From: Candidatus Saccharimonadales bacterium
GTDB taxonomy: Bacteria; Patescibacteriota; Saccharimonadia; Saccharimonadales; DATKHC01
DNA length: 64,000 nt
Direction of reading: 5' to 3'
NCBI GenBank assembly: GCA_038317055.1
Contig: JBBQBA010000001.1
Coordinates: forward strand, 24,153 to 88,152
In this document: in pieces, positions 4,541 through 62,658 of the stretch
Position numbering within the stretch: position 1 is the first letter of the stretch
Layout of the letters: every line of letters starts with the position of its first letter
The notes under the pieces: model-generated
Database searches by the model: none
Seen by the model: only the letters and a program-made list of their open reading frames with translations
What the model was told of the DNA's origin: nothing
Position numbers and translations under genes: made by a program

Positions 4541-5595
4541 TTTTTCTTCCTTAGTCGTTTAAATCGTCTCACTATAACTTTGGTAATCGAATATATACTA
4601 AATAAAATCAGTAATGTAAAAATAAGAACACCGATTAACATGAGCCACGGTATTACCCAAAAAGTAACAACGCCATTTACCGCAATATCTCTAGTTCCAT
4701 CGTTATATACAAGCACCAAATGTGCATAATATTTACCATATCGAAAACTTGAAATATTTGTAACATTCCACTTAAGTTGTTGAACAGGTTTTCCATTCTT
4801 GTCAGATACAATTTGGCCGTTTATTCTCTTTAAGCCGTAATAAGGAAAACCATTATTCCAAGATGCGTTAAACACTCTATTTGTATTTGGCAATACATTG
4901 CCTTGGCCACTGTTAATGTCTAGAGTATCAATAGTTTTACCGGTTAGCGTTCGACTTATATATATGTCACCTTTAGGTGCTGTAAATATTTTTCCATCGT
5001 TATGTACATTTACGCTAAATTTAGCAGGTAGATATTGAAAAATAGTTTTATTAACACTGAAGTCCTCGATACTTAATTTACGAGATTCACCTGGAACATG
5101 AGCATCAAGTAGTACCAAAATTGCATTTGCGCCTTTAACTTTATTAGTATTTACGGTTGTGTTTAGTACCGTCTTTGGAACAAATAAGACCGCATAATAA
5201 TAACCAAAAGCTGCAGTTTTAGGCACATTTATATTCATCACAACATTCTCCCAAACACCAGGTTGGGCAGTGAATGTAGTTTGAGAAAAATGCACCCAAG
5301 ATATAGAAGGGTCGCTAATTGGGGGATTATATATCTGTGCTTTACCACTAAGACCATCAGCACGAAATTCTTGCAGTTTTAGAGTAATATTTACCGGACT
5401 ACTACTATTATTTTGAACCTGAAGATTAGTTGTTGTAGACGTCCCTGGAGGGGTTGCTATATCTACTGTAACTGGGCTGGTTGTAATTATTGATCCTGCG
5501 TTATTTAACGCTGAAGCACTTGAGTTCAATATAAATAAACATCCAATTTGTAAGCCCAAAAACCAAATAAAGGTTTTTAATGTTATCCCATTCAT
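4537..5595 (-). CDS. DUF916/DUF3324-like (CscA-like) cell-surface protein, paralogue of 3608-4540
   Basis: 352 aa with a signal peptide. Motifs seen: TTSPVTVDI..NLQVQNNSSSPVNITLKLQEF, WVHFSQ, AFGYYYAVLFVP. The second Ig-like half reads FSVNVHNDGKIFTAPKGDIYI. The C-terminus is a TM helix plus basic tail (VRRFKRLRKKN). Confidence 0.65.
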   Translation of the reverse strand: MNGITLKTFIWFLGLQIGCLFILNSSASALNNAGSIITTSPVTVDIATPPGTSTTTNLQVQNNSSSPVNITLKLQEFRADGLSGKAQIYNPPISDPSISWVHFSQTTFTAQPGVWENVVMNINVPKTAAFGYYYAVLFVPKTVLNTTVNTNKVKGANAILVLLDAHVPGESRKLSIEDFSVNKTIFQYLPAKFSVNVHNDGKIFTAPKGDIYISRTLTGKTIDTLDINSGQGNVLPNTNRVFNASWNNGFPYYGLKRINGQIVSDKNGKPVQQLKWNVTNISSFRYGKYYAHLVLVYNDGTRDIAVNGVVTFWVIPWLMLIGVLIFTLLILFSIYSITKVIVRRFKRLRKKN

Positions 5596-5613
5596 ATATT
5601 AGGGATAAGTATA

Positions 5614-6770: not shown

Positions 6771-7802
6771 CTAAAAACTGGCAGCTGCGATAAAGGTAAG
6801 ATTTTCTAAATAATCTATACTTGCAGGAGTATTAGTAGATGCTATTGCCTGTAAGTTAGCATTTGCTGCACCACCATTTATAGCGGTGGTTGTCGTTAGA
6901 ATCTGTGACGGGACTGTTGTGTCTGCTCCAACAACATTGCTGCTACCATTGAATGGACTTACCAGAGTAAGTGGTCCCCCAGAAGTTTGACTCGCATTAG
7001 TTGCTTGTATTCCAAATCCCTCAGATTGTGGTGCTAAATTACCTGTAAAAGCCGGAATAGTATGGCTTTGAGTTGCACTTAATAGCCCTACATTAACGCC
7101 CGAAACGTAAACTGAACCACCGCTATTTGCATTTGTCGTGAACGCAAAAGTAAGGTTTCCGCTTGTTGATACTGTTCCGGGCAATAGATTTCCGATACTA
7201 ATAGAGTTTGGTGATACTGAAAATGTAGTTGATACACCGACTGTTGAAGCGGTTGCATAAGCTCCAAAGTTAGTATTGGTGAATTTACCTTGCATGGCTG
7301 CTACTTTAACTTCATAGGTGGTCGAGGGCGTCAGTCCAGTTATAAAGGAACCACTTCCACCTCCCCATGCAGTATAGGTTTGATATACCTGAGTACTGTT
7401 TATTGATCCATCAGCTTGTACATAACCAAGGGTTGTTGAAAAATTATTAGTTGAAACTGCGATTGCAAACGTGGAATCCGTAGGATTACCTCCTGTTGCG
7501 ATAATAAAATTTAGTTGGTTGTAATATGTTCCGGAACCGTTACTTAGCGTCGGAGCCGGAGGTATATTGAGTTGTTCTGTTTGTATTGAGCCATTATTAG
7601 CCGTTTTTGTAGAACCAGATGTAACTCCATTTGCTTGCTCACCGGCACTACCCTGAAGGCTATAAGTTGTCGATGATGAATTATTTGTAGCGCCAGGTCC
7701 AATGCTATAGGACTGTAGATTATAAGATGTACCGTGTGAAAAAGTCGCAAAAAATATCGACAACAAAGATAACCCAAGTATTGCGAAATTATTGATCAAC
7801 AT
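6771..7802 (-). CDS. secreted surface protein, FN3-like module plus WxL-like C-terminal domain
   Basis: 343 aa with a signal peptide. The FN3-like segment reads PPAPTLSNGSG..GLTPSTTYEVKVAA. The C-terminal half (TFSVSPNSISIG..) ends ..TPASIDYLENLTFIAAASF, parallel to the neighbouring gene. Confidence 0.55.
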   Translation of the reverse strand: MLINNFAILGLSLLSIFFATFSHGTSYNLQSYSIGPGATNNSSSTTYSLQGSAGEQANGVTSGSTKTANNGSIQTEQLNIPPAPTLSNGSGTYYNQLNFIIATGGNPTDSTFAIAVSTNNFSTTLGYVQADGSINSTQVYQTYTAWGGGSGSFITGLTPSTTYEVKVAAMQGKFTNTNFGAYATASTVGVSTTFSVSPNSISIGNLLPGTVSTSGNLTFAFTTNANSGGSVYVSGVNVGLLSATQSHTIPAFTGNLAPQSEGFGIQATNASQTSGGPLTLVSPFNGSSNVVGADTTVPSQILTTTTAINGGAANANLQAIASTNTPASIDYLENLTFIAAASF

Positions 7803-7843
7803 ATAGGGATAATTGTATTAAGGTGTCGCACTATTAGCAAATT

Positions 7844-8437
7844 CTAACCCGACCGCCATTGCCAGGATGATACTATCATATTCAAAGTTTTATCTAAGTT
7901 AGTATTGCCATTTAAGTCATCCCCAGTTAACGATATACTGGCCTGATACGGCCCATGTACTAGAAAAACCACTTTGCTATACTCTCCGACAGATTTATCA
8001 GTCATAACAACACCTGAATTATTATTTAGATCTAGATTAGATTGTTGATATTTTGTTGGATTAATTTTTCTTACTTGATAACCAGAATTACTATTTAATT
8101 GTCCATTTGGGATATTTAGAACTTCAATTGCTAAGCTCCATGTCACAACATCTCGATAAGTGAAGTTAACTTTATCTACAGAAGGAAAAACTAATGTTGA
8201 AGTAGAACCAGTAACTAGACTACTAGGATAATTAAAACTAATAAATTTATCACTATACTGAACAGGTTTACTTACAAATGTTGATTGGTTTGATTTAATA
8301 GTATAGCTTGATGACAAAGTTCCATGATTAGTTGAATTGACCCTTGATATAGTGACTAATACTAAAATCAAAATAATAATTGCAATAACTGAAGTAATTA
8401 AAACTTTTTTCTTTCTTTTCAATATAGCTTTTTTCAT
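7844..8437 (-). CDS. hypothetical N-terminally anchored extracytoplasmic protein (first gene of the surface locus)
   Basis: 197 aa. A basic N-terminus precedes a TM helix (VLITSVIAIIILILVLVTI). It is co-directional with and 41 nt upstream of the next gene. Confidence 0.45.
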   Translation of the reverse strand: MKKAILKRKKKVLITSVIAIIILILVLVTISRVNSTNHGTLSSSYTIKSNQSTFVSKPVQYSDKFISFNYPSSLVTGSTSTLVFPSVDKVNFTYRDVVTWSLAIEVLNIPNGQLNSNSGYQVRKINPTKYQQSNLDLNNNSGVVMTDKSVGEYSKVVFLVHGPYQASISLTGDDLNGNTNLDKTLNMIVSSWQWRSG

Positions 8438-8541
8438 ACTAACTTCATATTACAATGAATTTTGCATTTTAAGCCTAAGCTTTTTTAATTAGCTATCTGT
8501 GTGGTCATGTTATAATTTTCTCTGATATATAAAAATAAAAA

Positions 8542-9675
8542 ATGTCCAAGAAAAAATCTAGAACTTCAACGAGTAAGTTTCATAAAAGAACCTTTACTAA
8601 TATAGGGGTCAATTCAAAAGTCTCAAAAAAACCTAAGAGAAAACTTATTAAGCATAAAGTTCGCCGAAGTCAGCCAGTACACAAAAGATTTATACTTCAT
8701 CCAGCAACTCTTTTAATACTTTTGGGCATTTTAGTATTGTTATCTGGGTGGACTTATAAGGCAGTGGCAGATAGTTTTACGGTTTCTGCCAGAATTAACG
8801 CTCCGCCACTTAGTGACGGTGCTACTATTACTTCACCTCTTCAAAATAGTACATCTACTGTTAGTGACATATCAGTCAGCGGAATATGTCCAGACAATTC
8901 ATACGTAAAACTATATGACAATGGATTATTTAGCGGTGTTGCGATATGTTCTTCAAATACATTTCAGATAAGTATAAGTTTATTCGCAGGTTCAAATATA
9001 CTTCAAGCTCAAGATTTCAACATAACGGACCAAGCAGGTCCAGTAACGGCAAGTGTGACCGTGTATTTTACAGCTCCTACTCCTACACCTAACCCTAGTC
9101 CTACACCACCTCCACCTGGAACTACAAATCCAACATCTCCCGTAACACCCAGCCCCTTAATTGCAGTCACTGATTTTCATTATCAAACTTTTGAAGTAGG
9201 TAAAGACTACAGTGCTCAAATTCAACTTGAGGGTGGGACAGCTCCATATATTCTTAATATTAACTGGGGCGATGGTTCTTCTGAAACATTAACAACTAAT
9301 GATCCGTCAACATTAACAATTAATCATATATATAAGTCACAAGGTTATTATGTGATTATTATTAAAGTAACGGATGCCAAGCATCAAGTGCGAACAATTC
9401 AGTTAGCAGCATTGATTAAGTTCCCAGGCAGCATCGGCATATTCTCAAATACTTCTAGAGGCTCAAACAATATTTTTAAAACTATAAATATCCCCCCACC
9501 AAATATATTTACACTATATAAAAACTGGCTATGGATAGCATGGCCATCACTATTAATAGTTTTATTAATGGCTATTAGTTTTTGGCTAGGTGAGCGTCAG
9601 GAATATCAAAATATTATAAATAAATATAGCTTGTCTAACAAACGAGGATATAAAAATCAAAAAAGACGTGCATAA
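8542..9675 (+). CDS. membrane protein with Ig-like and PKD-like domains, N- and C-terminal TM segments
   Basis: 377 aa. It has a very basic N-terminal tail and a TM helix (LLILLGILVLLSGW). A Pro-rich linker (PTPTPNPSPTPPPPG) follows. The PKD-like motif is INWGDGSSE..HIYKSQGYYVIIIKVTD. There is a C-terminal TM helix. Confidence 0.6.
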   Translation: MSKKKSRTSTSKFHKRTFTNIGVNSKVSKKPKRKLIKHKVRRSQPVHKRFILHPATLLILLGILVLLSGWTYKAVADSFTVSARINAPPLSDGATITSPLQNSTSTVSDISVSGICPDNSYVKLYDNGLFSGVAICSSNTFQISISLFAGSNILQAQDFNITDQAGPVTASVTVYFTAPTPTPNPSPTPPPPGTTNPTSPVTPSPLIAVTDFHYQTFEVGKDYSAQIQLEGGTAPYILNINWGDGSSETLTTNDPSTLTINHIYKSQGYYVIIIKVTDAKHQVRTIQLAALIKFPGSIGIFSNTSRGSNNIFKTINIPPPNIFTLYKNWLWIAWPSLLIVLLMAISFWLGERQEYQNIINKYSLSNKRGYKNQKRRA

Positions 9676-55456: not shown

Positions 55457-56848
55457 TTAAAGTCTCATTTGCTGAAAGGCTTTTAGCAGAATATCGAGCA
55501 TTATTTGATAATTTGCTGCGTTTGAATTTCCGGAGTTTACACCTGCATATAAATAAACCACATTGTCTACTACATTTATATTAACTTCAAAAGGCAATGC
55601 TTCTAACTTTTCCATAAAGACAGGTTCTAAAAGTTCAAAACTAGTAACTCTTTCTATATCGCTAGCAAAAACCTCATACTTCTTATTAAAGTCAGGCCAC
55701 TCCATAGAAACTTTAGTTAGGCCACGAATACCAAATGGATGAAATCCTGATTTGTGTCTTACTAAAATTTCACCATAACTTTTAGGAACATTTGTTTGAG
55801 CTATCAAATAAGTCTTATTATTCGCGTTTGGATTAGCGTTGTAAGTATAGATCTGAACCAAACAATCTTTATACATTCCAATAATATGATTATTTAAATC
55901 TGATACCCCAAACTTACCTTCTCCAAATAATTGTCCACGTGCAGGAAGTAACAACCAACCCATATCTAGGCTATAAAAAAAACCCTGGCTTGATGCGAAT
56001 TCTTCTAATGCGGGGTTGTTGGACCATTGGTTAGCTGTAGCGGGTTGAATACCGTCGAGTAGCCAATTATTATCGAATCTATGGAATCGCCAAAATTCTG
56101 AGAAGTTATTATTGTTAGTGAAAATAGTTTTATCATCCCGAGTATCAATAAGTTGATCATTCGCCTTTGCGGTAAATCCAATTATAAAGTCATCTTTAGA
56201 ATTATCTGTTGAATCATCTACTTTTGTTATAGTTGCTTGAATAATTTGTGGCGAATTAACGTTGTCGCGACGACCAGCTAGTTGCAAAGCATAAACCAAA
56301 AGTGCAGCATGTTTATAATAGTATGGCGATAGATAGGTCTTCATTGACTCTGTATTGTAGTCAGTCCAGTCTTTTTGATATTTGAAAAAGACATCCTTTG
56401 CATGATCAGTAAGAGTTTGTTCATTCCAAACTGAATCGTTTTGTTCAGCATTATTTAGTTCATTTCTAGTTACTCTAGACTGTTTTATTTTGCCGAATAA
56501 ATTATAAAGTCCCGCAGCCATACCGATTGGCGCACCAATTGCGGATACAATAAATAATAAACTGACATGGAAAGAAAAGAATAGTAAGAATACTGTATAG
56601 ATCCCGGCTATAGCCCAACCAATCCCCTGGCCTAAGACAGATTCAACTTCATTATTTCGGAATTTCCGTACTAAAGCCCCTGCTAAATGCATTGGTAAAT
56701 ATCCCAGTAAAAATAATCCACCTCCTATTCCGCCGCCACCCGAGCCACCTGAACCTCCGCCACCTCCGCCGCCACCAGAGCCACCACCACCAGCTGATGA
56801 AAATATGTAGCTAACATGTGTGAAAATTAGACCAAATAAATCGGGCAT
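55457..56848 (-). CDS. membrane protein with Gly-run, Tim44-like domain and DUF3137-like C-terminal domain
   Basis: The N-terminus reads SSAGGGGSGGGGGGGGSGGSGGGGIGGG. TM helices follow. KYQKDWTDYNTESMKTYLSPYYY..FWRFHRFDNNWLLDGIQ is Tim44-like, and the C-terminal domain resembles DUF3137. Confidence 0.55.
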   Translation of the reverse strand: MPDLFGLIFTHVSYIFSSAGGGGSGGGGGGGGSGGSGGGGIGGGLFLLGYLPMHLAGALVRKFRNNEVESVLGQGIGWAIAGIYTVFLLFFSFHVSLLFIVSAIGAPIGMAAGLYNLFGKIKQSRVTRNELNNAEQNDSVWNEQTLTDHAKDVFFKYQKDWTDYNTESMKTYLSPYYYKHAALLVYALQLAGRRDNVNSPQIIQATITKVDDSTDNSKDDFIIGFTAKANDQLIDTRDDKTIFTNNNNFSEFWRFHRFDNNWLLDGIQPATANQWSNNPALEEFASSQGFFYSLDMGWLLLPARGQLFGEGKFGVSDLNNHIIGMYKDCLVQIYTYNANPNANNKTYLIAQTNVPKSYGEILVRHKSGFHPFGIRGLTKVSMEWPDFNKKYEVFASDIERVTSFELLEPVFMEKLEALPFEVNINVVDNVVYLYAGVNSGNSNAANYQIMLDILLKAFQQMRL

Positions 56849-57567: not shown

Positions 57568-57644
57568 TGGTGGGTGATGAGGGACTCGAACCCCCGACCC
57601 TCTCGGTGTAAACGAGATGCTCTAGCCAACTGAGCTAATCACCC
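57568..57644 (-). tRNA. tRNA-Val (anticodon TAC), CCA encoded
   Basis: The reverse complement folds as GGGTGAT-TA-GCTC-AGTTGGCTA-GAGC-A-TCTCG-TTTACAC-CGAGA-GGGTC-GGGGG-TTCGAGT-CCCTC-ATCACCC-A-CCA. Confidence 0.9.
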
Positions 57645-57755
57645 GACTTCTGATAAAGTATCACATCTGTACTATAGAGAGCAATAATTACGTTTCAGTA
57701 AACTTAATAAATTGATTTTTTAGTTGCTCATCCTTATGCTAATGAGGAGTTATAG

Positions 57756-57839
57756 GCGCGAGTGGTGAAATGGTAGACACGCCTGTCTGAGGGGCAGGTG
57801 CCGCAAGGTGTGGAGGTTCGAGTCCTCTCTCGCGCACCA
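57756..57839 (+). tRNA. tRNA-Leu (anticodon GAG), type II long variable arm, CCA encoded
   Basis: Acceptor GCGCGAG/CTCGCGC. The anticodon arm is CCTGT-CTGAGGG-GCAGG. The variable arm is 13 nt (TGCCGCAAGGTGT) and the T-loop is TTCGAGT. Confidence 0.9.
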
Positions 57840-57844
57840 TTTTT

Positions 57845-59488
57845 TTATTGTTGATTAACAACTAGTGCAGTTGGCATTGTTGCATTAACCGTAACTATAA
57901 CTTTCCAATTCGCTGGCACATTTAACGTTAATAATCCTTTTCCCGTAGTTACAGTTGAAGGATATATTGTATTTTCCGCACCCGATGAAGGTCCCATAGT
58001 AACTGTTACGTTCTGAGAAACACTATTAGCTAAATATACTGTTGTATTACAAATAGTGGATGGAGTAAATGCTACTCCAGAAGTTGGTGTTGGACTACTA
58101 GTTAATGTCTGCGACCCAGTTCCCTGACTAAAACCAATTTCAACCCACATTTGCATGTCTTGTTTCCATATAACCGTCAAAGTTCCGCCATTGCCAGCAA
58201 GAACTCTGGTTGCGCTGTTTAGAATCAGCTGCTGAGTCACTCCAGAAGTAAAGGTTAGTGTATTTGTGACTGAAACTGCGCCATTAACAATAGTTATGAC
58301 TTGGCCATCATATCCAACTCCTACGCCTGTAATGACAGCTGCTCCAGTTATGGCTGCTACCGCTGAGGCTGAAACTAAAGTTATAGTGCTAGAATATCGT
58401 GCATCTACAGTAAAATTAGCTCCCGCTGATTGAGTATTACTACCGGAAAATACTGCCTGTCCTGTAGCTATTGTTGCGGTTCCAAAAACGGTCGTACAAC
58501 CCGTAAAAGTATTACCGCCGGATACTCCTGTATATGAAATAGCCGGACTAGTTGCCTGGTTATTACCACTGGCGATCAGAATTACTGGATTAATTGCTGC
58601 TGTTGCATTTATAGTTCCAGATCCACTTACCACTACACCTCCAAATACAAAAGCAGCCCTACTGGTATATGTAAATGTATGTGAAGTCCCTGTATTATCA
58701 ACTATCGTTCCCATACCAGCTTGTGCCCATCCAACATTGTTCGCTTGCAAGAAAGTAGCAGTATTAATGGCACTTATTGTAGTTGAAGAGCCATAGGATG
58801 CGGTTGTAAAGCTAGTATTAAATCCATTTGTCGAAGTCACATTTAATGAACCTGAACCTGTATAAGTACTTATATTTACATTATTTGAGCCACTAGTGAT
58901 ATTAGTTATCATCGGAGCTGATGGTACAAAAGTAGTTGAAGAATTCAATAAACCTACATTTTGAGTTGCACCATAAAACGGATAATAAGTGGCGCCATCA
59001 TTCGCCATATTAGCTATGACAACACCTAATTGTTTTGCTACAGTTCCATTTCCAGCACCTTGAGTTCCTGTAGATACGTCGTTTACATTAATTCCAATTC
59101 TAATTAGGCCAGTTGTATTTGCGCCGTAAATACCTCCTAGCTGCATATTAATCTGTTGAATATTGGATAAACTACCACCATTAGTTGTTAAATATAAGAT
59201 GTTATCCCAGATTCCTACTGACCAACCTTGTCCAGCACCAGGAGAACTAAAAGTGTTACCAGATAAAGGAAATGCTACGGGTGCATTATTAGCAATGACT
59301 GTTGGTAAATTAACAAATTGTTCTGCTGAATAGATACTAGTAATTGCAAACTTTAATGATACTGTTCCACTTTGTGTTGAATTAACAGGAGTAAATCCAT
59401 TAAATAAAGAAATTGACCAAACTCCACCAGTATATGAAATATTACTCGATTTAGCGTTTGCGCCTATACCAGTACCTGTAACCAACAT
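57845..59488 (-). CDS. hypothetical beta-rich S/T/G/N-rich fibre-associated protein, no signal peptide
   Basis: 547-aa ORF lying 8 nt downstream of the collagen-like gene. The stop lies 5 nt from the tRNA-Leu 3' end. No hydrophobic N-terminus. Confidence 0.55.
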   Translation of the reverse strand: MLVTGTGIGANAKSSNISYTGGVWSISLFNGFTPVNSTQSGTVSLKFAITSIYSAEQFVNLPTVIANNAPVAFPLSGNTFSSPGAGQGWSVGIWDNILYLTTNGGSLSNIQQINMQLGGIYGANTTGLIRIGINVNDVSTGTQGAGNGTVAKQLGVVIANMANDGATYYPFYGATQNVGLLNSSTTFVPSAPMITNITSGSNNVNISTYTGSGSLNVTSTNGFNTSFTTASYGSSTTISAINTATFLQANNVGWAQAGMGTIVDNTGTSHTFTYTSRAAFVFGGVVVSGSGTINATAAINPVILIASGNNQATSPAISYTGVSGGNTFTGCTTVFGTATIATGQAVFSGSNTQSAGANFTVDARYSSTITLVSASAVAAITGAAVITGVGVGYDGQVITIVNGAVSVTNTLTFTSGVTQQLILNSATRVLAGNGGTLTVIWKQDMQMWVEIGFSQGTGSQTLTSSPTPTSGVAFTPSTICNTTVYLANSVSQNVTVTMGPSSGAENTIYPSTVTTGKGLLTLNVPANWKVIVTVNATMPTALVVNQQ

Positions 59489-59496
59489 TCCACCCG

Positions 59497-60900
59497 TTAT
59501 TGCAGTACTTGTTGGGTAGATTTTGTAATTACATTAGAACCGTTAGTAGTTGTCCATGTGTCATTAACTGGTGTTGCATTTGTATATGTATATTCATTCT
59601 GAATAACTGGCCCTATTCCATAAAGCGCGCTAGCTGGTTGAGCAAAAGTAACATTTCCCTCATTTTGAATTACTCCCCTAGGACCATACGGGCCACCACT
59701 AAGGCTAGTAGCAATTGAAGGCGGTGCATTTACATTTCCAAGTTGCGTTATTGTTCCCGGATTACTTGCTATTGGGGCTGTGGCGGTTGTTGAAGAAGTT
59801 ATTGTAAAACTTATAAGAGATAATGAACTTCCGATATTCCAATTACTTGGTACGAAACCAGTTGAATATGCACCAAATACGTCGCCAATTTTGCCTAACG
59901 TTCCTAGTATTGAAGAGCTGAAAGTAAAAGTCGCAACTCCTCCAGACCAAGAATTAGTCCCGAGCATTGAAGTAGTAAGAAGCGGTAAAAAGTCCACCGT
60001 AACAGTTTGTGAAGTTAAAATAGCGGTATTTGCTCTTAATGAATCGGTAGGACCATAGGTAGAGTCATATACGAGAGATAACATAATATTTTTAGATAAG
60101 GTGGTCGGTACTTGTGATTCGATCCAAGTTCCAGGAGCTCCTGCTATAGTACAAGTCCAAACAGCACCAGTTTGATCAATAACAAAATCGCCGACCGTAA
60201 ATGTAACAGCTCCCCCAGTTGGTGCACCCAACGAAGTAGTACCCATATATCTACCATCAAGTAATGACCCACTTCCACCCTGTACGCCTAAACTACTTGC
60301 TCCGGTAATAGCATTATTTCCCATTCCTATAGAACCGCTCATGGTGCCACCAGTTAGTAATAATGCCCCACTAGATGCAGCACCTGTTGCTCCTTGAGGA
60401 CCAGTTGAGCCTGTCGAACCTGATCCTGTTGCTCCTTGAGGACCAGTTGAGCCTGTTGCACCTGTTGGTCCAGTAGCTCCAGTAGTACCGGCACCGGTTG
60501 AACCCTGAGGACCAGTAGAACCCGTTGCACCTGTTGGTCCAGTAGCACCAGTGATTCCGGCACCTGTAGAGCCGGTATTTCCAATTGGGCCGGAAGATCC
60601 TGTAAAACCCTGTATTCCTTGCGAACCTGTAGCACCTGTCGAACCTGTTCCCGTTGCTCCCTGAGGACCAGTTGAGCCAGTTACTCCGGTTGCACCAGTG
60701 CTACCTTGAGCACCAGTAGCACCTGTTGCTCCCCCACCAGGTCCAGTTGGACCTATTGTACCTTGTGGACCTTGTGGTCCTGTAGCACCAACAGCAGAAT
60801 CTTTCAGACTTCCATCGGAATTTAAGGAAACACTTAAAAAGTCGTTTAATATATTACCCCAATTACCATTATCCCCACCGGGTGACGGTAAGCGCGCCAT
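59497..60900 (-). CDS. collagen-like triple-helix-repeat protein (tail-fibre-like N-terminus)
   Basis: The N-terminus [22 protein letters not shown] is followed by ~135 aa of G-X-Y repeats ([17 protein letters not shown]...). The C-terminal domain is beta-rich. No signal peptide. Confidence 0.8.
60385..60789 (-). repeat. in-frame G-X-Y (collagen) coding repeat with a few frame interruptions and near-identical sub-repeats
   Basis: Repeated ggaccagt(t/a)ga(g/a)cc(t/c)gt.. units encode [16 protein letters not shown](S/A)TG twice. Confidence 0.8.
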
Positions 60901-61020
60901 TTGTTACTTAATTACCCTTTTAGACATCAGTATTTATTTAACCCTCTAGGCCAGAATGCCTATTAATTAGAAGCGGCATTTAAGGATTAGTATATATGAT
61001 AGAAAGCATTTATATAAGGA

Positions 61021-62658
61021 CTAGATGTAGGGTAGATAACTATAAAAATGACCAAGATCATAGCTATCACGAAGAATTGGTTTCACGGTATCAATTCCGC
61101 CACCTATCTTTACGCCAGGATTTAGTATACCGTGTGGGTCAAAAGTTTCTTTTATTTTTCTAAGTATCTCATAAGCATCCGCACCGTATTGTAATGGTAA
61201 GTATGCAGTTCTTAGTCGTCCTTCACCATGTTCTCCGGTAATACTGCCATCTAAATTAAGAACTAGCTTATAGTATTCATCCATAATCTTAAATATTTTT
61301 TGACGATGTCCAACTTGGCCAATATCCAATATTGGTTGAATATGAAGATGTCCATCACCGGCGTGACCGTAAACTGAAATTGGCATATTGTTATTCTTAA
61401 ATATTTCATATACCCCAGCCATAAACTTAGCTAGATTTTCCGGTGGTACAATTCCATCTTCAATAATTGGAATCGGTTTCGCACTACCTTCACCGTGTAA
61501 AAGTACTGCAGTTGTACTTTCTCGGAGTTTCCATAATTCTTCTTTTTTATGGGCTTCAGTTTCAGAATGATATTGAACTGCATTATCTTTAAATATTCGT
61601 GATAATCTCTTCAATAATTTCTTTTGTGCATGATCTGATTCATTGTCCAGTTCTATTAATAAAACAAAATTAGGCATTGGTTCTTTTAGGGTTGCCGAAA
61701 TTAAACCAGGATCATATTTGTGTGCCATATCGAGTAAATTCTTATCTACAATTTCGACCATACTTGGAGTCTCCGGCAATTTTCTAATTTCTATAATAAC
61801 CTGCTGTAATACCGCAAGAGTTTCTAGTTTAGCAAGTATTAATGTCGTATTTGCCTTGCGCTGTAAAGTAGATAATGTAGCCTCAGTTATTAGACCAAGT
61901 GTTCCCTGTGATCCAACAAGTAATGGAGTTAGATCAAAAGATCCGTCTTTTCGCTTTACTAGATTAATATTGTAGCCTGCAGCATTCTTGGTTGTACTTA
62001 GATTAAACTTTTTAATAACCTCCTGGTTGTCTTCAATTAGGGCATCAATAGTTCTATATATTTCACCTTCAAAGGTTGATAGTCCAAGTTTCTTATTGAG
62101 TTCGCGTTTTGATAACCGCTTTGCATCAATTACATCACCATTTGAAAGAACTACCCTTAGACCCTTTACAAAATCAAGAGTAGATCCGTATTTCAGACTT
62201 CTAGCACCACTAGCATTGTTTGCCAGAGCTCCGCCAATCGTGCTGTATTCCATTGAGGATGGTGCCGGAGGTAGAAACCTATCATGTGTATAAAGAGTTT
62301 GTTGAAGTTTGCCATAATTAATTCCTGGCTCAACAGTTACAGTTCCGGTTTTGTTATCTAATTCAAGTATCCGATTAAGGTGTGCCGGGAAGATTATTAT
62401 TATTCCACTACCGATAGCAGCTCCTGTTTGATCTGTACCACTTCCACGTGCGGTTATAGGAAACACTCGACCTCGCTCAGCTAATTGCCAGGTAAACTTA
62501 GTGGTCTTTCTAATATCGTTTTCATTTCTAGGATAAACGATGACGTTGGGAGTTATCGTAAATATGCTTGCGTCTGTAGAAAAGTGTCGCCTTGCATCAT
62601 TACCTGTAATTATCTCACCATTAATATGACCCTGTAAGTATTGCGCGATTTTATTCAT
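61021..62658 (-). CDS. FAD-linked oxidase (GlcD / D-lactate dehydrogenase-like), paralogue of 34294-35949
   Basis: ITARGSGTDQTGAA..GHAGDGHLHI..GSITGEHGEG..FDPHGILNPG. The start was trimmed to ATG 62658 (MNKIAQYL). Confidence 0.85.
   Translation of the reverse strand: MNKIAQYLQGHINGEIITGNDARRHFSTDASIFTITPNVIVYPRNENDIRKTTKFTWQLAERGRVFPITARGSGTDQTGAAIGSGIIIIFPAHLNRILELDNKTGTVTVEPGINYGKLQQTLYTHDRFLPPAPSSMEYSTIGGALANNASGARSLKYGSTLDFVKGLRVVLSNGDVIDAKRLSKRELNKKLGLSTFEGEIYRTIDALIEDNQEVIKKFNLSTTKNAAGYNINLVKRKDGSFDLTPLLVGSQGTLGLITEATLSTLQRKANTTLILAKLETLAVLQQVIIEIRKLPETPSMVEIVDKNLLDMAHKYDPGLISATLKEPMPNFVLLIELDNESDHAQKKLLKRLSRIFKDNAVQYHSETEAHKKEELWKLRESTTAVLLHGEGSAKPIPIIEDGIVPPENLAKFMAGVYEIFKNNNMPISVYGHAGDGHLHIQPILDIGQVGHRQKIFKIMDEYYKLVLNLDGSITGEHGEGRLRTAYLPLQYGADAYEILRKIKETFDPHGILNPGVKIGGGIDTVKPILRDSYDLGHFYSYLPYI

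Follow-up and report, generated by a model that had tools for sequence, protein, structure and literature searches.

Two abutting open reading frames, here called P1 and P2, lie between the gene for a FAD-linked oxidase (FADox) and a tRNA-Leu/tRNA-Val pair in the genome of a member of the Saccharibacteria (TM7). The window is the whole 64-kb stretch of DNA that was analysed, and P1 and P2 together are referred to as the fibre gene. The features of the locus are:

60901-61020, minus strand: spacer of 120 bp from the stop of the FAD-linked oxidase gene to the start of the fibre gene, the presumed promoter region
59497-60900, minus strand: P1, ORF of 467 aa
57845-59488, minus strand: P2, ORF of 547 aa
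57756-57839, plus strand: tRNA-Leu(gag), found by ARAGORN, Rfam 52.4 bits, convergent with the fibre gene
57568-57644, minus strand: tRNA-Val(tac), found by ARAGORN, Rfam 69 bits, the conserved partner of tRNA-Leu(gag) in Saccharibacteria

The stop codon of P1 is separated from the ATG of P2 by 8 nt, and the stop of P2 lies 5 nt (57840-57844) from the 3' CCA of tRNA-Leu. Both gaps, and the coordinates of the ORFs and tRNAs, had been given in a first-pass annotation of this DNA and were all correct on re-check; the sequence features it described (the N-terminus, the G-X-Y region, the beta-rich end and the tRNA pair) were likewise recovered. P1 and P2 occupy different frames, and the frame of P2 is open up to 59533, overlapping the end of P1. 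The neighbouring genes are housekeeping genes: LigA, HtpX, LemA, Mur ligase, Ddl, LeuRS, NusB and the FAD-linked oxidase. When the collected phage loci were compared with all window ORFs of at least 80 aa, P1 and P2 were the sole matches, and the earlier statement that no phage gene lies nearby therefore holds. Reading of the N-termini by eye revealed no signal peptide or TM helix in either product. The spacer contains no repeat of tRNA-Leu or tRNA-Val, and its likeness to the DNA 5' of a related fibre gene in the nearest species (locus L069) is weak and limited to 26 nt.

The first-pass annotation had regarded P1 and P2 as a gene pair. Comparison with their homologues points instead to one frameshifted gene: in all the relatives identified, those encoded on phage contigs included, the C-terminal half of P1 and the whole of P2 correspond to a single polypeptide. 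For this comparison, P1C denotes the C-terminal, non-collagen part of P1, P2N the first ~200 residues of P2, and P2C the remainder. The 845-aa phage protein P0002 is colinear with residues 217-461 of P1, then with residues 3-193 and 393-453 of P2; its residues 27-268 are ~40% identical to the proximal core in P1, and its residues 281-467 are 39% identical to the N-terminal part of P2. An exhaustive profile search returned 51 matches at E <= 1e-30, and the long top matches (P0033-P0047, 859-1904 aa) contain P1C-, P2N- and P2C-like segments in order in one chain, as does a 1390-aa ORF from the IMG/VR contig L111. P1 and P2 follow the colinear segment order of this single-chain fibre-core set (P0002, P0033-P0047 and the L111 ORF), yet the uninterrupted ORF of the set is absent here. 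Because the frame changes between 59533 and 59497, the gene is called frameshifted:

59497-59533, minus strand: frameshift zone, in which the P1 frame ends with TAA at 59497-59499 and the P2 frame is open from 59533

Reading in the frame of P2 continues without a stop for 45 nt 5' of the ATG, and this stretch resembles the homologues, its codons matching GYPAAGITQG in P0035. The ATG itself aligns with an internal Met in three of five homologues. When a conceptual -1 shift at the A run was aligned to five single-chain homologues, the alignment was gap-free from the shift site to the P2 Met in four of them. Judged from the sequence, a single nucleotide was most likely lost from the A4 run at 59521-59524 (ACA AAA TCT), and a 1-nt loss at or near this run would explain the split. 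Since an independent Logan assembly (L001, SRR19962015) is identical over 57615-60412, the frameshift is not an assembly error. P1 and P2 can thus be read as the halves of a single fibre gene, of ~1018 codons once restored. The top long relatives are single chains, and in P0035 of contig L113, where a split occurs as well, the break falls at another position. No close relative of the exact window gene was present in the databases searched, and we therefore infer, rather than observe, an intact ancestral allele. Each half retains its full open frame (467 codons in P1, 547 in P2), as would fit a very recent lesion and also a split that is tolerated or useful.

Once restored, the gene can be divided into the following parts:

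60802-60900, minus strand: N-terminal anchor motif (N-motif; P1 1-33), M-A-R-L-P-x-P-G-x-D-x-x-x-W-G-x-I-L-N-x-F-L-x-V-x-x-N-x-D-G-x-L-K
60376-60789, minus strand: collagen-like G-X-Y stalk (P1 38-175), Pfam Collagen (PF01391) at 2.7e-7, 30.7 bits against a cutoff of 27.2
60383-60464, minus strand: 42-nt tandem duplication in the collagen region, Tandem Repeats Finder 150, 2.0 copies, 95% identical, repeat families D1 and D2
60253-60375, minus strand: neck after the stalk (P1 176-216), matching, in L113, the final part of the ORF that lies 5' of P0035, LSGSNTMTGALNMGDEAITDVSNL
60115-60252, minus strand: widespread ~50-aa module (P1 217-262), RY(M/V)G.T..GAP..G.F.VGDFVID..G..W.CT.AG.PGTW
59521-60114, minus strand: proximal fibre core (P1 263-460), colinear with the single-chain homologues, 30-46% identity to P0033-P0047
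58904-59488, minus strand: first part of the distal fibre core (P2 1-195), motifs PG.GQGW..G.WD and N.G.LN.STTF.PS
58124-58387, minus strand: beta-sandwich matching the Phage_depo_C region of a phage homologue (P2 ~368-455), pLDDT 82-96, the best-predicted part of the P2 model
57848-58123, minus strand: C-terminal tip (P2 456-547), similar by eye to the C-termini of P0034 and P0035

The architecture is therefore that of a 33-aa anchor followed by a collagen stalk, a neck, a beta-rich core that includes a sandwich resembling Phage_depo_C, and a tip. Searches of Pfam, NCBIfam and the PDB gave no match to the anchor motif. Six uninterrupted G-X-Y runs of 7, 10, 10, 8, 8 and 5 triplets (48 in total) make up the stalk, and the PHROG tail-fibre matches to P1 cover little beyond the collagen region and its edges. 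Near-identical sub-repeats, as described in the first-pass annotation, are present in the form of the doubled 42-nt unit, and the length variability expected of the repeat is seen in relatives, which differ in collagen length. The neck was modelled by AlphaFold2 with low confidence. The ~50-aa module, 65-74% identical to modules in P0004 and P0005, the latter of which adjoins a terminase gene in an SU10-like phage contig, is behind most of the 5233 profile matches and is often repeated inside one protein.

Within the proximal core, a small beta domain is confidently predicted at P1 ~305-395 (pLDDT 84-97). Besides P0002, eleven proteins share 34-43% identity with the first part of the distal core, which is also present in the IMG/VR contigs L111 and L112. 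Further along, residues 393-453 of P2 are 44% identical to a stretch of P0002 (contig L002) that holds its match to Phage_depo_C (PF25692; P0002 664-725, 5.5e-6, 27.2 bits against a cutoff of 25), while P2 itself has no Pfam match at E <= 0.1, PF25692 included. At the tip, for which the model is of low confidence, a blastp segment aligns P2 ~436-533 with P0034 978-1080 at 29% identity. A Pfam scan of the fibre-core family members (P0002, P0033-P0047 and the L111 ORF) was empty except for one stray match, a sequence search of the family against the PDB gave nothing real, and the family has no PHROG entry either. All structure predictions are of monomers and of low confidence overall.

The likeness to phage tail fibres that the first-pass annotation had perceived is borne out at both ends of the gene. 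In 23 IMG/VR viral contigs, proteins begin at residue 1 with the N-motif (50-67% identity); in one of these loci (L090) the gene directly follows the tape-measure gene, and another N-motif contig (L095) carries portal and major head genes. The motif also occurs in six records of five cultured Streptomyces phages. This extreme N-terminal position is thus shared with proteins of bona fide phage genomes. The closest relatives of the distal parts are found in siphovirus contigs: P0008, a cluster-mate of P0002, is encoded in contigs of 37-39 kb with genes for portal, Mu F, prohead protease, major capsid protein, tail tube, tape measure and the distal tail protein Dit, and P0034 lies near a capsid gene. 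None of 50,697 deposited phage genomes matches the distal core, and the window gene does not sit inside a phage or prophage structural module, its neighbours being housekeeping genes and no other window ORF matching the phage loci.

Several known systems invite comparison. Collagen-like fibres of actinobacteriophages, such as BRock gp186, a 'collagen triple helix repeat-containing protein', carry the same N-motif at residue 1, with 53-61% identity over 33-36 aa, and then continue into G-X-Y repeats. These tail fibre or minor tail proteins, of which the PHROG 'collagen like minor tail' families are a further example, likewise combine an anchor, a stalk and a distal domain and have no signal peptide, and PHROG tail-fibre families match the window stalk. 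In contrast to the actinobacteriophage fibres, the window gene belongs to the chromosome of a cell, is unaccompanied by any other phage gene, is frameshifted, and has a distal core unmatched among the deposited phage genomes. P0002 and P0008 (845 aa, Phage_depo_C), from uncultured 37-39 kb siphoviruses (ENA GROS21-1 scaffolds), are colinear with the window fibre at 39-44% identity, and the contigs that encode them equal the window in GC content (0.36). Unlike the window fibre, the phage protein is a single ORF without the N-motif and collagen stalk, and its C-terminal ~90 residues differ; moreover, its gene lies between the Mu F-like and prohead protease genes and not in a tail-tip module.

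The host side of the comparison is provided by other Saccharibacteria. FADox, tRNA-Leu, tRNA-Val and LemA are syntenic in ~23 TM7 species, and the slot between FADox and LemA ranges from 1.0 to 9.5 kb with variable content. The fibre gene is a solitary occupant of this slot, extending from the FAD-linked oxidase gene to the tRNA pair. At L069, a gene with the same N-motif and collagen, and with a GDSL esterase tip, flanks the same tRNA pair on the opposite side. At its 5' end this gene is 73% identical to the window gene over 160 nt; FADox reaches 75% and the tRNA block 78% (77.6% to L069 11656-11925). The tRNA-Leu(gag) gene is inverted relative to most TM7 species and oriented as in L069. Conservation and synteny across relatives, which the first-pass annotation took as an argument against its own phage reading, are therefore found in part: a related gene with a 5' divergence close to that of the housekeeping neighbours occupies the same tRNA locus, but the order of fibre gene and tRNA pair differs between the window and L069. 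This difference in order leaves room for independent insertions beside tRNA 3' ends. The core formed by P1C and P2 was not found in the other TM7 loci compared, and the distal module may have been acquired from a phage recently, even with a resident 5' end.

The N-motif begins proteins in four TM7 loci (L069, L082, L019 and L035) and heads at least 339 genes in metagenome contigs, some of them 0.4-1.2 Mb long; five metagenome loci have 2-3 copies per 20 kb. The genes next to the metagenomic copies are TM7 orthologues at 55-80% identity, the assignment to TM7 resting on orthologue similarity and not on taxonomy. Among 134 ORFs neighbouring N-motif genes, the top Pfam and PHROG families are cellular, or are minor-tail or tail-fibre families, and no portal, terminase, capsid or integrase is among the 25 commonest. 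Many solitary Saccharibacteria genes thus share the N-motif and differ in their distal modules, which comprise a GDSL esterase, a beta-helix with a K1-lyase rider, BppL_N, DUF5907 and 'Phage tail repeat like' domains. Together they apparently constitute a large and so far undescribed family of stand-alone fibre genes in Saccharibacteria, which lends some weight to the earlier idea of a domesticated module. Modular phage receptor-binding proteins (tailspikes, depolymerases and lactococcal BppL) similarly join a conserved anchor to exchangeable tips, but the TM7 genes are solitary amid housekeeping genes of a reduced epibiont genome, with no baseplate or tail partner seen. Tailocin fibres (R- and F-type) and Bacillus BclA are domesticated or cell-encoded trimeric fibres without Sec signals, and BclA, from the exosporium, has an N-terminal targeting segment, a variable-length collagen-like region and a beta C-terminal domain. 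Unlike the tailocin fibres, the window gene has no adjacent tail, sheath or baseplate genes within the 64 kb, which are part of a 491.6-kb contig, and a phage-like structural cluster could lie elsewhere in the genome. The window gene has no sequence relation to BclA.

We consider it probable that P1 and P2 represent one modular phage-type fibre gene of ~1018 codons, recently crippled, that belongs to a TM7-wide family of solitary genes. A first alternative, raised in the first-pass annotation, is that a prophage once integrated at the 3' end of tRNA-Leu and has since lost everything but the fibre gene, which is now decaying. The 3.2 kb of extra DNA in the window does lie exactly between FADox and the tRNA-Leu 3' end, where L069 has a gap of 4 bp, and the related L069 gene begins 132 bp from the tRNA-Val 3' end; the closest relatives of the distal part are phage-encoded, one such phage having the GC content of the window (0.36), and a frameshift fits decay. 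Against this, the proposed search for repeats of the tRNA-Leu 3' end at 60.9-61.0 kb yielded none. No att-like match to a tRNA end was found with up to 3 mismatches in 25 nt, words of at least 9 nt from the ends of tRNA-Leu and tRNA-Val are absent from 60850-61100, and those of at least 12 nt from the tRNA-Leu 3' end do not recur in the rest of the window. P1 and P2 are all that the island contains: it has neither an integrase nor another mobility gene, inverted repeats do not bound it, and no further phage gene or fragment was found.

Nor is the composition of the island unlike that of the host: GC3 is 0.206 and 0.216 for the two ORFs, compared with 0.240 +/- 0.032 in the other window genes, and synonymous codon use is alike and indistinguishable from the host's. 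Furthermore, the 5' end has diverged from the L069 gene as much as the flanking housekeeping genes have, and solitary genes with the same N-terminus are common amid TM7 housekeeping genes, with no phage hallmark in the commonest nearby families. We regard a prophage remnant as improbable; a decaying or phase-off copy within a resident TM7 family describes the fibre gene better.

A second alternative is that the split is functional and yields two products, either by a programmed -1 frameshift at ACA-AAA-T, making a short product of anchor, stalk and proximal core as well as the full-length fibre, or by termination-reinitiation of P2 in a true two-gene operon. Programmed frameshifts are used by phage tail genes. 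Here the needed shift is -1, tRNA-Lys would re-pair perfectly on A_AAA, and both ORFs are intact; the stop and start codons are only 8 nt apart with GGGTGG just 5' of the P2 ATG, and many genes of this genome lack a Shine-Dalgarno sequence, so that unusual initiation is common. Yet there is no canonical X_XXY_YYZ heptamer, only A_AAA in ACA AAA TCT, and the P-site codon ACA is unable to re-pair in the -1 frame. No stable stimulatory structure is predicted in the 101 nt downstream from the A run (MFE -17.8 kcal/mol, z = -0.51 relative to shuffled sequences). The single-chain state of the top long relatives, and the different break in P0035, also argue against such an arrangement. Finally, because the P2 ATG is an ancestral internal Met and the codons upstream still match the homologues, a recent lesion is indicated rather than an evolved start, and we regard a functional two-product arrangement as very improbable.

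A third alternative, that the gene encodes a common type of bacterial surface adhesin with collagen-like repeats (Scl, Lcl or BclA) and has nothing to do with phages, would account for the Pfam Collagen domain and for NCBIfam matches, all below threshold, to Lcl, SclB and SclA at residues 33-209, but those models (NF038329, NF038330 and NF046116) score 46-52 bits against cutoffs of 325-500 bits and in the G-X-Y region only, neither signal peptide nor LPXTG is seen by inspection, and the existence of phage-encoded homologues for the N-terminus and the entire distal part, that is, for the non-collagen parts, effectively refutes it.

For the single modular fibre gene, the architecture suggests how an intact protein might work. 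It would trimerise via the collagen stalk, the N-motif would dock to a conserved partner, either on a phage or phage-like particle or on an envelope structure, and the distal beta domains would be presented to a surface glycan receptor. From the recently crippled copy described here, ribosomes would halt after the proximal core and produce an anchor-plus-stalk stub with no tip, and P2 would be made only if ribosomes re-initiated at the ancestrally internal Met or, rarely, slipped by -1 on A_AAA.

It is conceivable, if rather unlikely on present evidence, that Saccharibacteria keep a chromosomal repertoire of phage-derived fibres with one docking motif and swappable glycan-binding or glycan-cleaving tips, of which the window gene is a member that has been switched off. 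Were this the case, the TM7 fibres, whose tips are akin to actinophage minor tail proteins, would serve host recognition and attachment in Saccharibacteria, which live attached to other bacteria, or, alternatively, would provide swappable receptor-binding proteins for a phage-like particle so far unrecognised.

The first-pass annotation had described this region as a pair of collagen-like genes abutting two tRNA genes with no phage gene nearby. The reading frames (here P1 and P2), the tRNA pair, the 5-nt gap and the G-X-Y repeats were all confirmed by the ORF listing and the tRNA scans.

Features of the fibre locus (coordinates in the window)
59497-60900, minus strand: P1, 467 aa (ORF listing)
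57845-59488, minus strand: P2, 547 aa (ORF listing)
57756-57839, plus strand: tRNA-Leu(gag) (tRNA scans)
57568-57644, minus strand: tRNA-Val(tac) (tRNA scans)

P2 and tRNA-Leu are convergent, the P2 stop codon lying 5 nt from the CCA end of the tRNA, and an Rfam scan returned the two tRNAs and nothing else. In P1, a 33-aa N-terminal motif (residues 1-33, the N-motif) is followed by a collagen-like stretch at residues 38-175, which comprises six G-X-Y runs of 5-10 triplets each, matches Pfam Collagen above threshold and includes a 42-nt duplication at 95% identity. Both flanks consist of housekeeping genes. One has LemA, Tim44-like/DUF3137, HtpX, LigA, Mur ligase, Ddl, LeuRS and NusB; the other has an FAD-linked oxidase (FADox). 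The surroundings are thus free of phage genes, as had been stated.

The Tim44-like/DUF3137 gene (55457-56848, minus strand), located between LemA and HtpX, codes for a protein with an extended poly-Gly/Ser tract close to the N-terminus (GGGGSGGGGGGGGSGGSGGGG), which arises from a 9-nt-periodic repeat, family D4, at 56718-56785. In addition, a Shine-Dalgarno sequence is missing from most genes of the window, and in many a TATAAT-like box is found at most 25 nt from the start codon; together, these features suggest that leaderless or short-leader mRNAs are frequent in this genome.

The division into two genes did not withstand comparison with homologues. A word-indexed search of 5.8 billion proteins yielded two relatives for the non-collagen part of P1 and a single one for P2, namely P0002 (845 aa), whose contig also codes for a prohead protease. 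Residues 27-268 of P0002 align with residues 217-461 of P1, and residues 281-467 with residues 3-193 of P2; in a three-way alignment, P2 residues ~370-450 form a further aligned segment with the Phage_depo_C region of P0002. As so few relatives had been retrieved, an exhaustive HMMER search was carried out with the three-way alignment, giving 5233 matches (E <= 1e-3), 51 of them with E <= 1e-30. In each of the top long matches, of 859-1904 aa, three segments follow one another in a single chain, resembling in turn the C-terminal non-collagen part of P1, residues 1 to ~200 of P2 and the remainder of P2, and the same order is found in a 1390-aa ORF of an IMG/VR contig (L111).

The P1 frame ends at a TAA codon (59497-59499), the P2 frame is open already from 59533, and a -1 frame change joins the two. 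When this shift is placed conceptually at an A4 run (59521-59524, ACA AAA TCT), the product can be aligned to five single-chain homologues, in four of them without a gap from the shift site to the P2 methionine. The 11 codons upstream of the P2 ATG, read in the P2 frame, match GYPAAGITQG of the homologue P0035, and the "start" methionine of P2 is an internal residue in three of the five aligned homologues. Over 57615-60412, the window agrees at every base with an independent Logan assembly of SRR19962015, which makes the frameshift a genuine feature of the population sequenced. Programmed frameshifting is unsupported, since the site has no X_XXY_YYZ heptamer and the fold downstream of it is no better than that of shuffled sequence (z = -0.51). 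We conclude with good confidence that one gene, and not a gene pair, occupies the locus: it encodes a modular fibre of phage type, was frameshifted recently, and in restored form has about 1018 codons. The databases searched contain no close relative of this gene, and it is for this reason that we infer its intact allele.

The gene neighbourhoods of the relatives point to the origin of the distal core, which lies beyond the collagen-like stretch. P0008, a cluster-mate of P0002, sits in siphovirus contigs of 37-39 kb that encode small terminase, portal, Mu F, prohead protease, major capsid, tail tube, tape measure and Dit (distal tail) proteins. The P0034 gene has a capsid gene nearby, P0035 lies on a contig with RusA and methyltransferase genes, and P0005, which shares a ~50-aa "GDFVID...W.CT.AG.PGTW" module with the window gene, adjoins a terminase in an SU10-like contig. 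Judged by sequence, the distal core is of a phage-encoded type. It was found in no other Saccharibacteria (TM7) locus examined, P2 had no match among deposited phage genomes, and a metagenome scan with the alignment of the first ~200 residues of P2 gave none. In an attempt to assign phage hosts, fibre genes were the only genes found in common between viral contigs and TM7 loci.

Two of the homologous loci have peculiarities of their own. In the siphovirus contig L085 (7840-13164), the genes for the 845-aa homologue and for a Ser/Thr-rich protein of 719 aa lie between the prohead protease and a Mu F-like head gene, unlike the usual tail-tip place of fibre genes. In L113 (8782-12580; GC 0.64, with the RusA and methyltransferase genes), the P0035 gene, the best relative of the C-terminal part of P2, is interrupted too; a 409-aa ORF upstream of P0035 ends in out-of-frame sequence right after a "neck" motif, and the position of the break therefore differs from that in the window gene.

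Remote homology and structure prediction of the C-terminal domains, proposed in the first-pass annotation as a check for phage receptor-binding proteins, agreed in part: phage-encoded sequence homologues were found, but the structural match was at best a weak one to a tailspike. The AlphaFold2 model of P2 is confident in part only (mean pLDDT 59.6), and its best Foldseek match is a phage tailspike depolymerase (E = 4.6e-4, TM-score 0.11). The model of the C-terminal part of P1, likewise confident in part only (mean pLDDT 63.1), has no significant PDB match. Matches of P1 to PHROG tail-fibre families span little but the G-X-Y region and its edges, and were therefore set aside as evidence for phage origin. 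The N-motif and the core are described by no entry in Pfam, NCBIfam, PHROG or the PDB: Pfam was essentially empty on core-family members, NCBIfam gave only sub-threshold collagen-adhesin matches, and PDB sequence searches with the N-motif and core profiles returned nothing or a spurious mandelate racemase match.

The N-motif is found at protein starts in 23 IMG/VR contigs, of GC 0.36 to 0.69. One of these viral contigs, L095, has portal and major head genes, and in L090 the N-motif gene comes after the tape-measure gene. Among deposited phage genomes, five Streptomyces phages carry the motif, which in BRock is followed by G-X-Y repeats. In terms of sequence, then, the 33-aa motif is phage-associated.

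N-motif genes of Streptomyces phages
7791-8738: phage BRock (L195, KX925554.1)
6956-8398: phage GiJojo (L196)

In a group of Streptomyces phages of 112-116 kb, the N-motif gene lies directly 3' of tRNA-Lys(ttt) within an array of ~30 tRNAs, and a second collagen-like "minor tail protein" is encoded at the opposite end of the array. The N-motif gene is thus tRNA-adjacent in these phages, as are the fibre genes of the window and of its nearest species.

When metagenomes were scanned with the motif profile, at least 339 relatives were confirmed. Of the 80 best loci, several are on contigs of 0.4-1.2 Mb, five carry two or three N-motif copies, and ~28 include genes orthologous to TM7 genes of the window or of the GTDB loci, identities being typically 55-80%; it is by these orthologues that metagenome contigs were assigned to TM7. 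The members vary in architecture, and in a collagen-bearing subfamily (L115, L117, L118 and L135) both stalk lengths and tips differ.

N-motif genes in the loci of other TM7 species
L082: 698 aa with DUF5907 tail-fibre repeats; a GH5-like gene comes next, and another N-motif copy is present elsewhere in the locus
L019: 962 aa, beta-helix, K1-lyase rider domain, weak BppL_N match
L035: 288 aa

Among 134 ORFs around eleven N-motif genes, the commonest Pfam families are cellular (response regulators, MFS and ABC transporters, MarR, AlaRS), and fibre-type families are represented by beta-helix, "Phage tail repeat like", DUF5907 and BppL_N. Most frequent among the annotated PHROGs are "minor tail protein", "tail fiber protein" and "virion structural protein". 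Portal, terminase, capsid and integrase are absent from the top 25 families of either database.

A small downstream gene common to phage and TM7 fibre loci was looked for, with no significant similarity found. In three TM7-like loci from metagenomes, the N-motif fibre gene is followed directly by a conserved gene of ~227 aa (MSLPAFRASALRRREQ...AAWGFDEGTGTTARDSS). Its copies in L128 and L167 are 89% identical, and it could encode an accessory or assembly partner. In the TM7-like contig L115 (9207-16472), N-motif genes of 449 and 332 aa, both with collagen, bracket five genes, including two paralogue pairs (363/380 aa and 227/219 aa).

The ~227-aa gene
4915-5598: L128
6048-6731: L165
5308-5991: L167

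A scan of GTDB species genomes with FADox gave 80 loci, nearly all labelled as Saccharibacteria or Saccharimonadales, the closest being L069 (OY969420.1; 82% identity). The order FADox, tRNA-Leu(gag), tRNA-Val(tac), LemA-HtpX is kept in ~23 species, with a FADox-LemA gap of between 1.0 and 9.5 kb. The window has its fibre gene between FADox and an inverted tRNA-Leu. In L069, tRNA-Leu is likewise inverted but adjoins FADox, and a 556-aa gene with N-motif, collagen and a GDSL esterase tip follows tRNA-Val; its product is 75% identical to that of the window gene over the first 80 aa. DNA identity between the two species is 73% for the first 160 nt of the fibre gene, 75% for FADox and 78% for the tRNA block, and the 5' module is thus about as diverged as its housekeeping neighbours. 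Upstream of the two fibre genes there is only a weak 26-nt resemblance. The comparison with relatives that had been proposed therefore places, in the nearest species, a related gene at the tRNA pair, with a 5' module diverged like its neighbours, but with a different tip and position.

In the tRNA pair (57568-57839 in the window), tRNA-Leu(gag) flips repeatedly with respect to tRNA-Val(tac) and FADox from one Saccharibacteria species to another, and the slot gains extra tRNAs in some (Phe, Gly, Cys, Leu-taa); it is a rearrangement hotspot with or without a fibre gene. The FADox of L069 (10013-11651) appears as two overlapping ORFs, probably through a long-read homopolymer error in that MAG, and frameshifts in such assemblies hence call for independent confirmation.

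The tRNA end had also been seen as a possible integration site. However, the att-like repeat looked for there was not found: no repeat of the 25-nt 3' end of tRNA-Leu was detected with up to 3 mismatches, no 9-12-nt words of either tRNA recur in the region upstream of P1, and no 12-14-nt words of the tRNA-Leu 3' end recur elsewhere in the window. The fibre gene is not bounded by inverted repeats, GC3 and synonymous codon usage of P1 and P2 are host-like, and none of the other ORFs of the window matches the collected phage loci. Together, these observations argue against a prophage scar, and the locus is not demonstrably a prophage remnant.

From gene context in about a dozen long contigs and the orthologue-based TM7 assignment, the window gene is most likely a member of a family of solitary fibre genes resident in Saccharibacteria. 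A conserved N-terminal docking motif and stalk would be combined in such a family with exchangeable distal modules, and the distal module of the window copy belongs to a type otherwise known from phages, one of which has the same GC content (0.36). By analogy with phage receptor-binding proteins, the product may be a trimeric fibre, held by its N-terminus and displaying a glycan-binding or glycan-cleaving tip. Inspection of the N-termini revealed no Sec signal in the fibre protein.

What appeared to be a gene pair is thus corrected to one broken phage-type fibre gene, and its N-motif marks a large family of solitary fibre genes set among housekeeping genes in many Saccharibacteria genomes. The exchangeable distal modules of this family resemble phage receptor-binding and depolymerase domains, including those of phages of Actinobacteria, the host phylum of cultivated Saccharibacteria. 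No description of such fibre genes in Saccharibacteria was found in the searchable literature, and the first report of a phage demonstrably targeting a bacterium of the Candidate Phyla Radiation (CPR) dates from 2026 (PMC13578794). The fibre family may bear on host recognition and attachment by Saccharibacteria epibionts and on their dealings with phages, and it provides a concrete, searchable set of candidates for these questions that is testable in cultivated strains.
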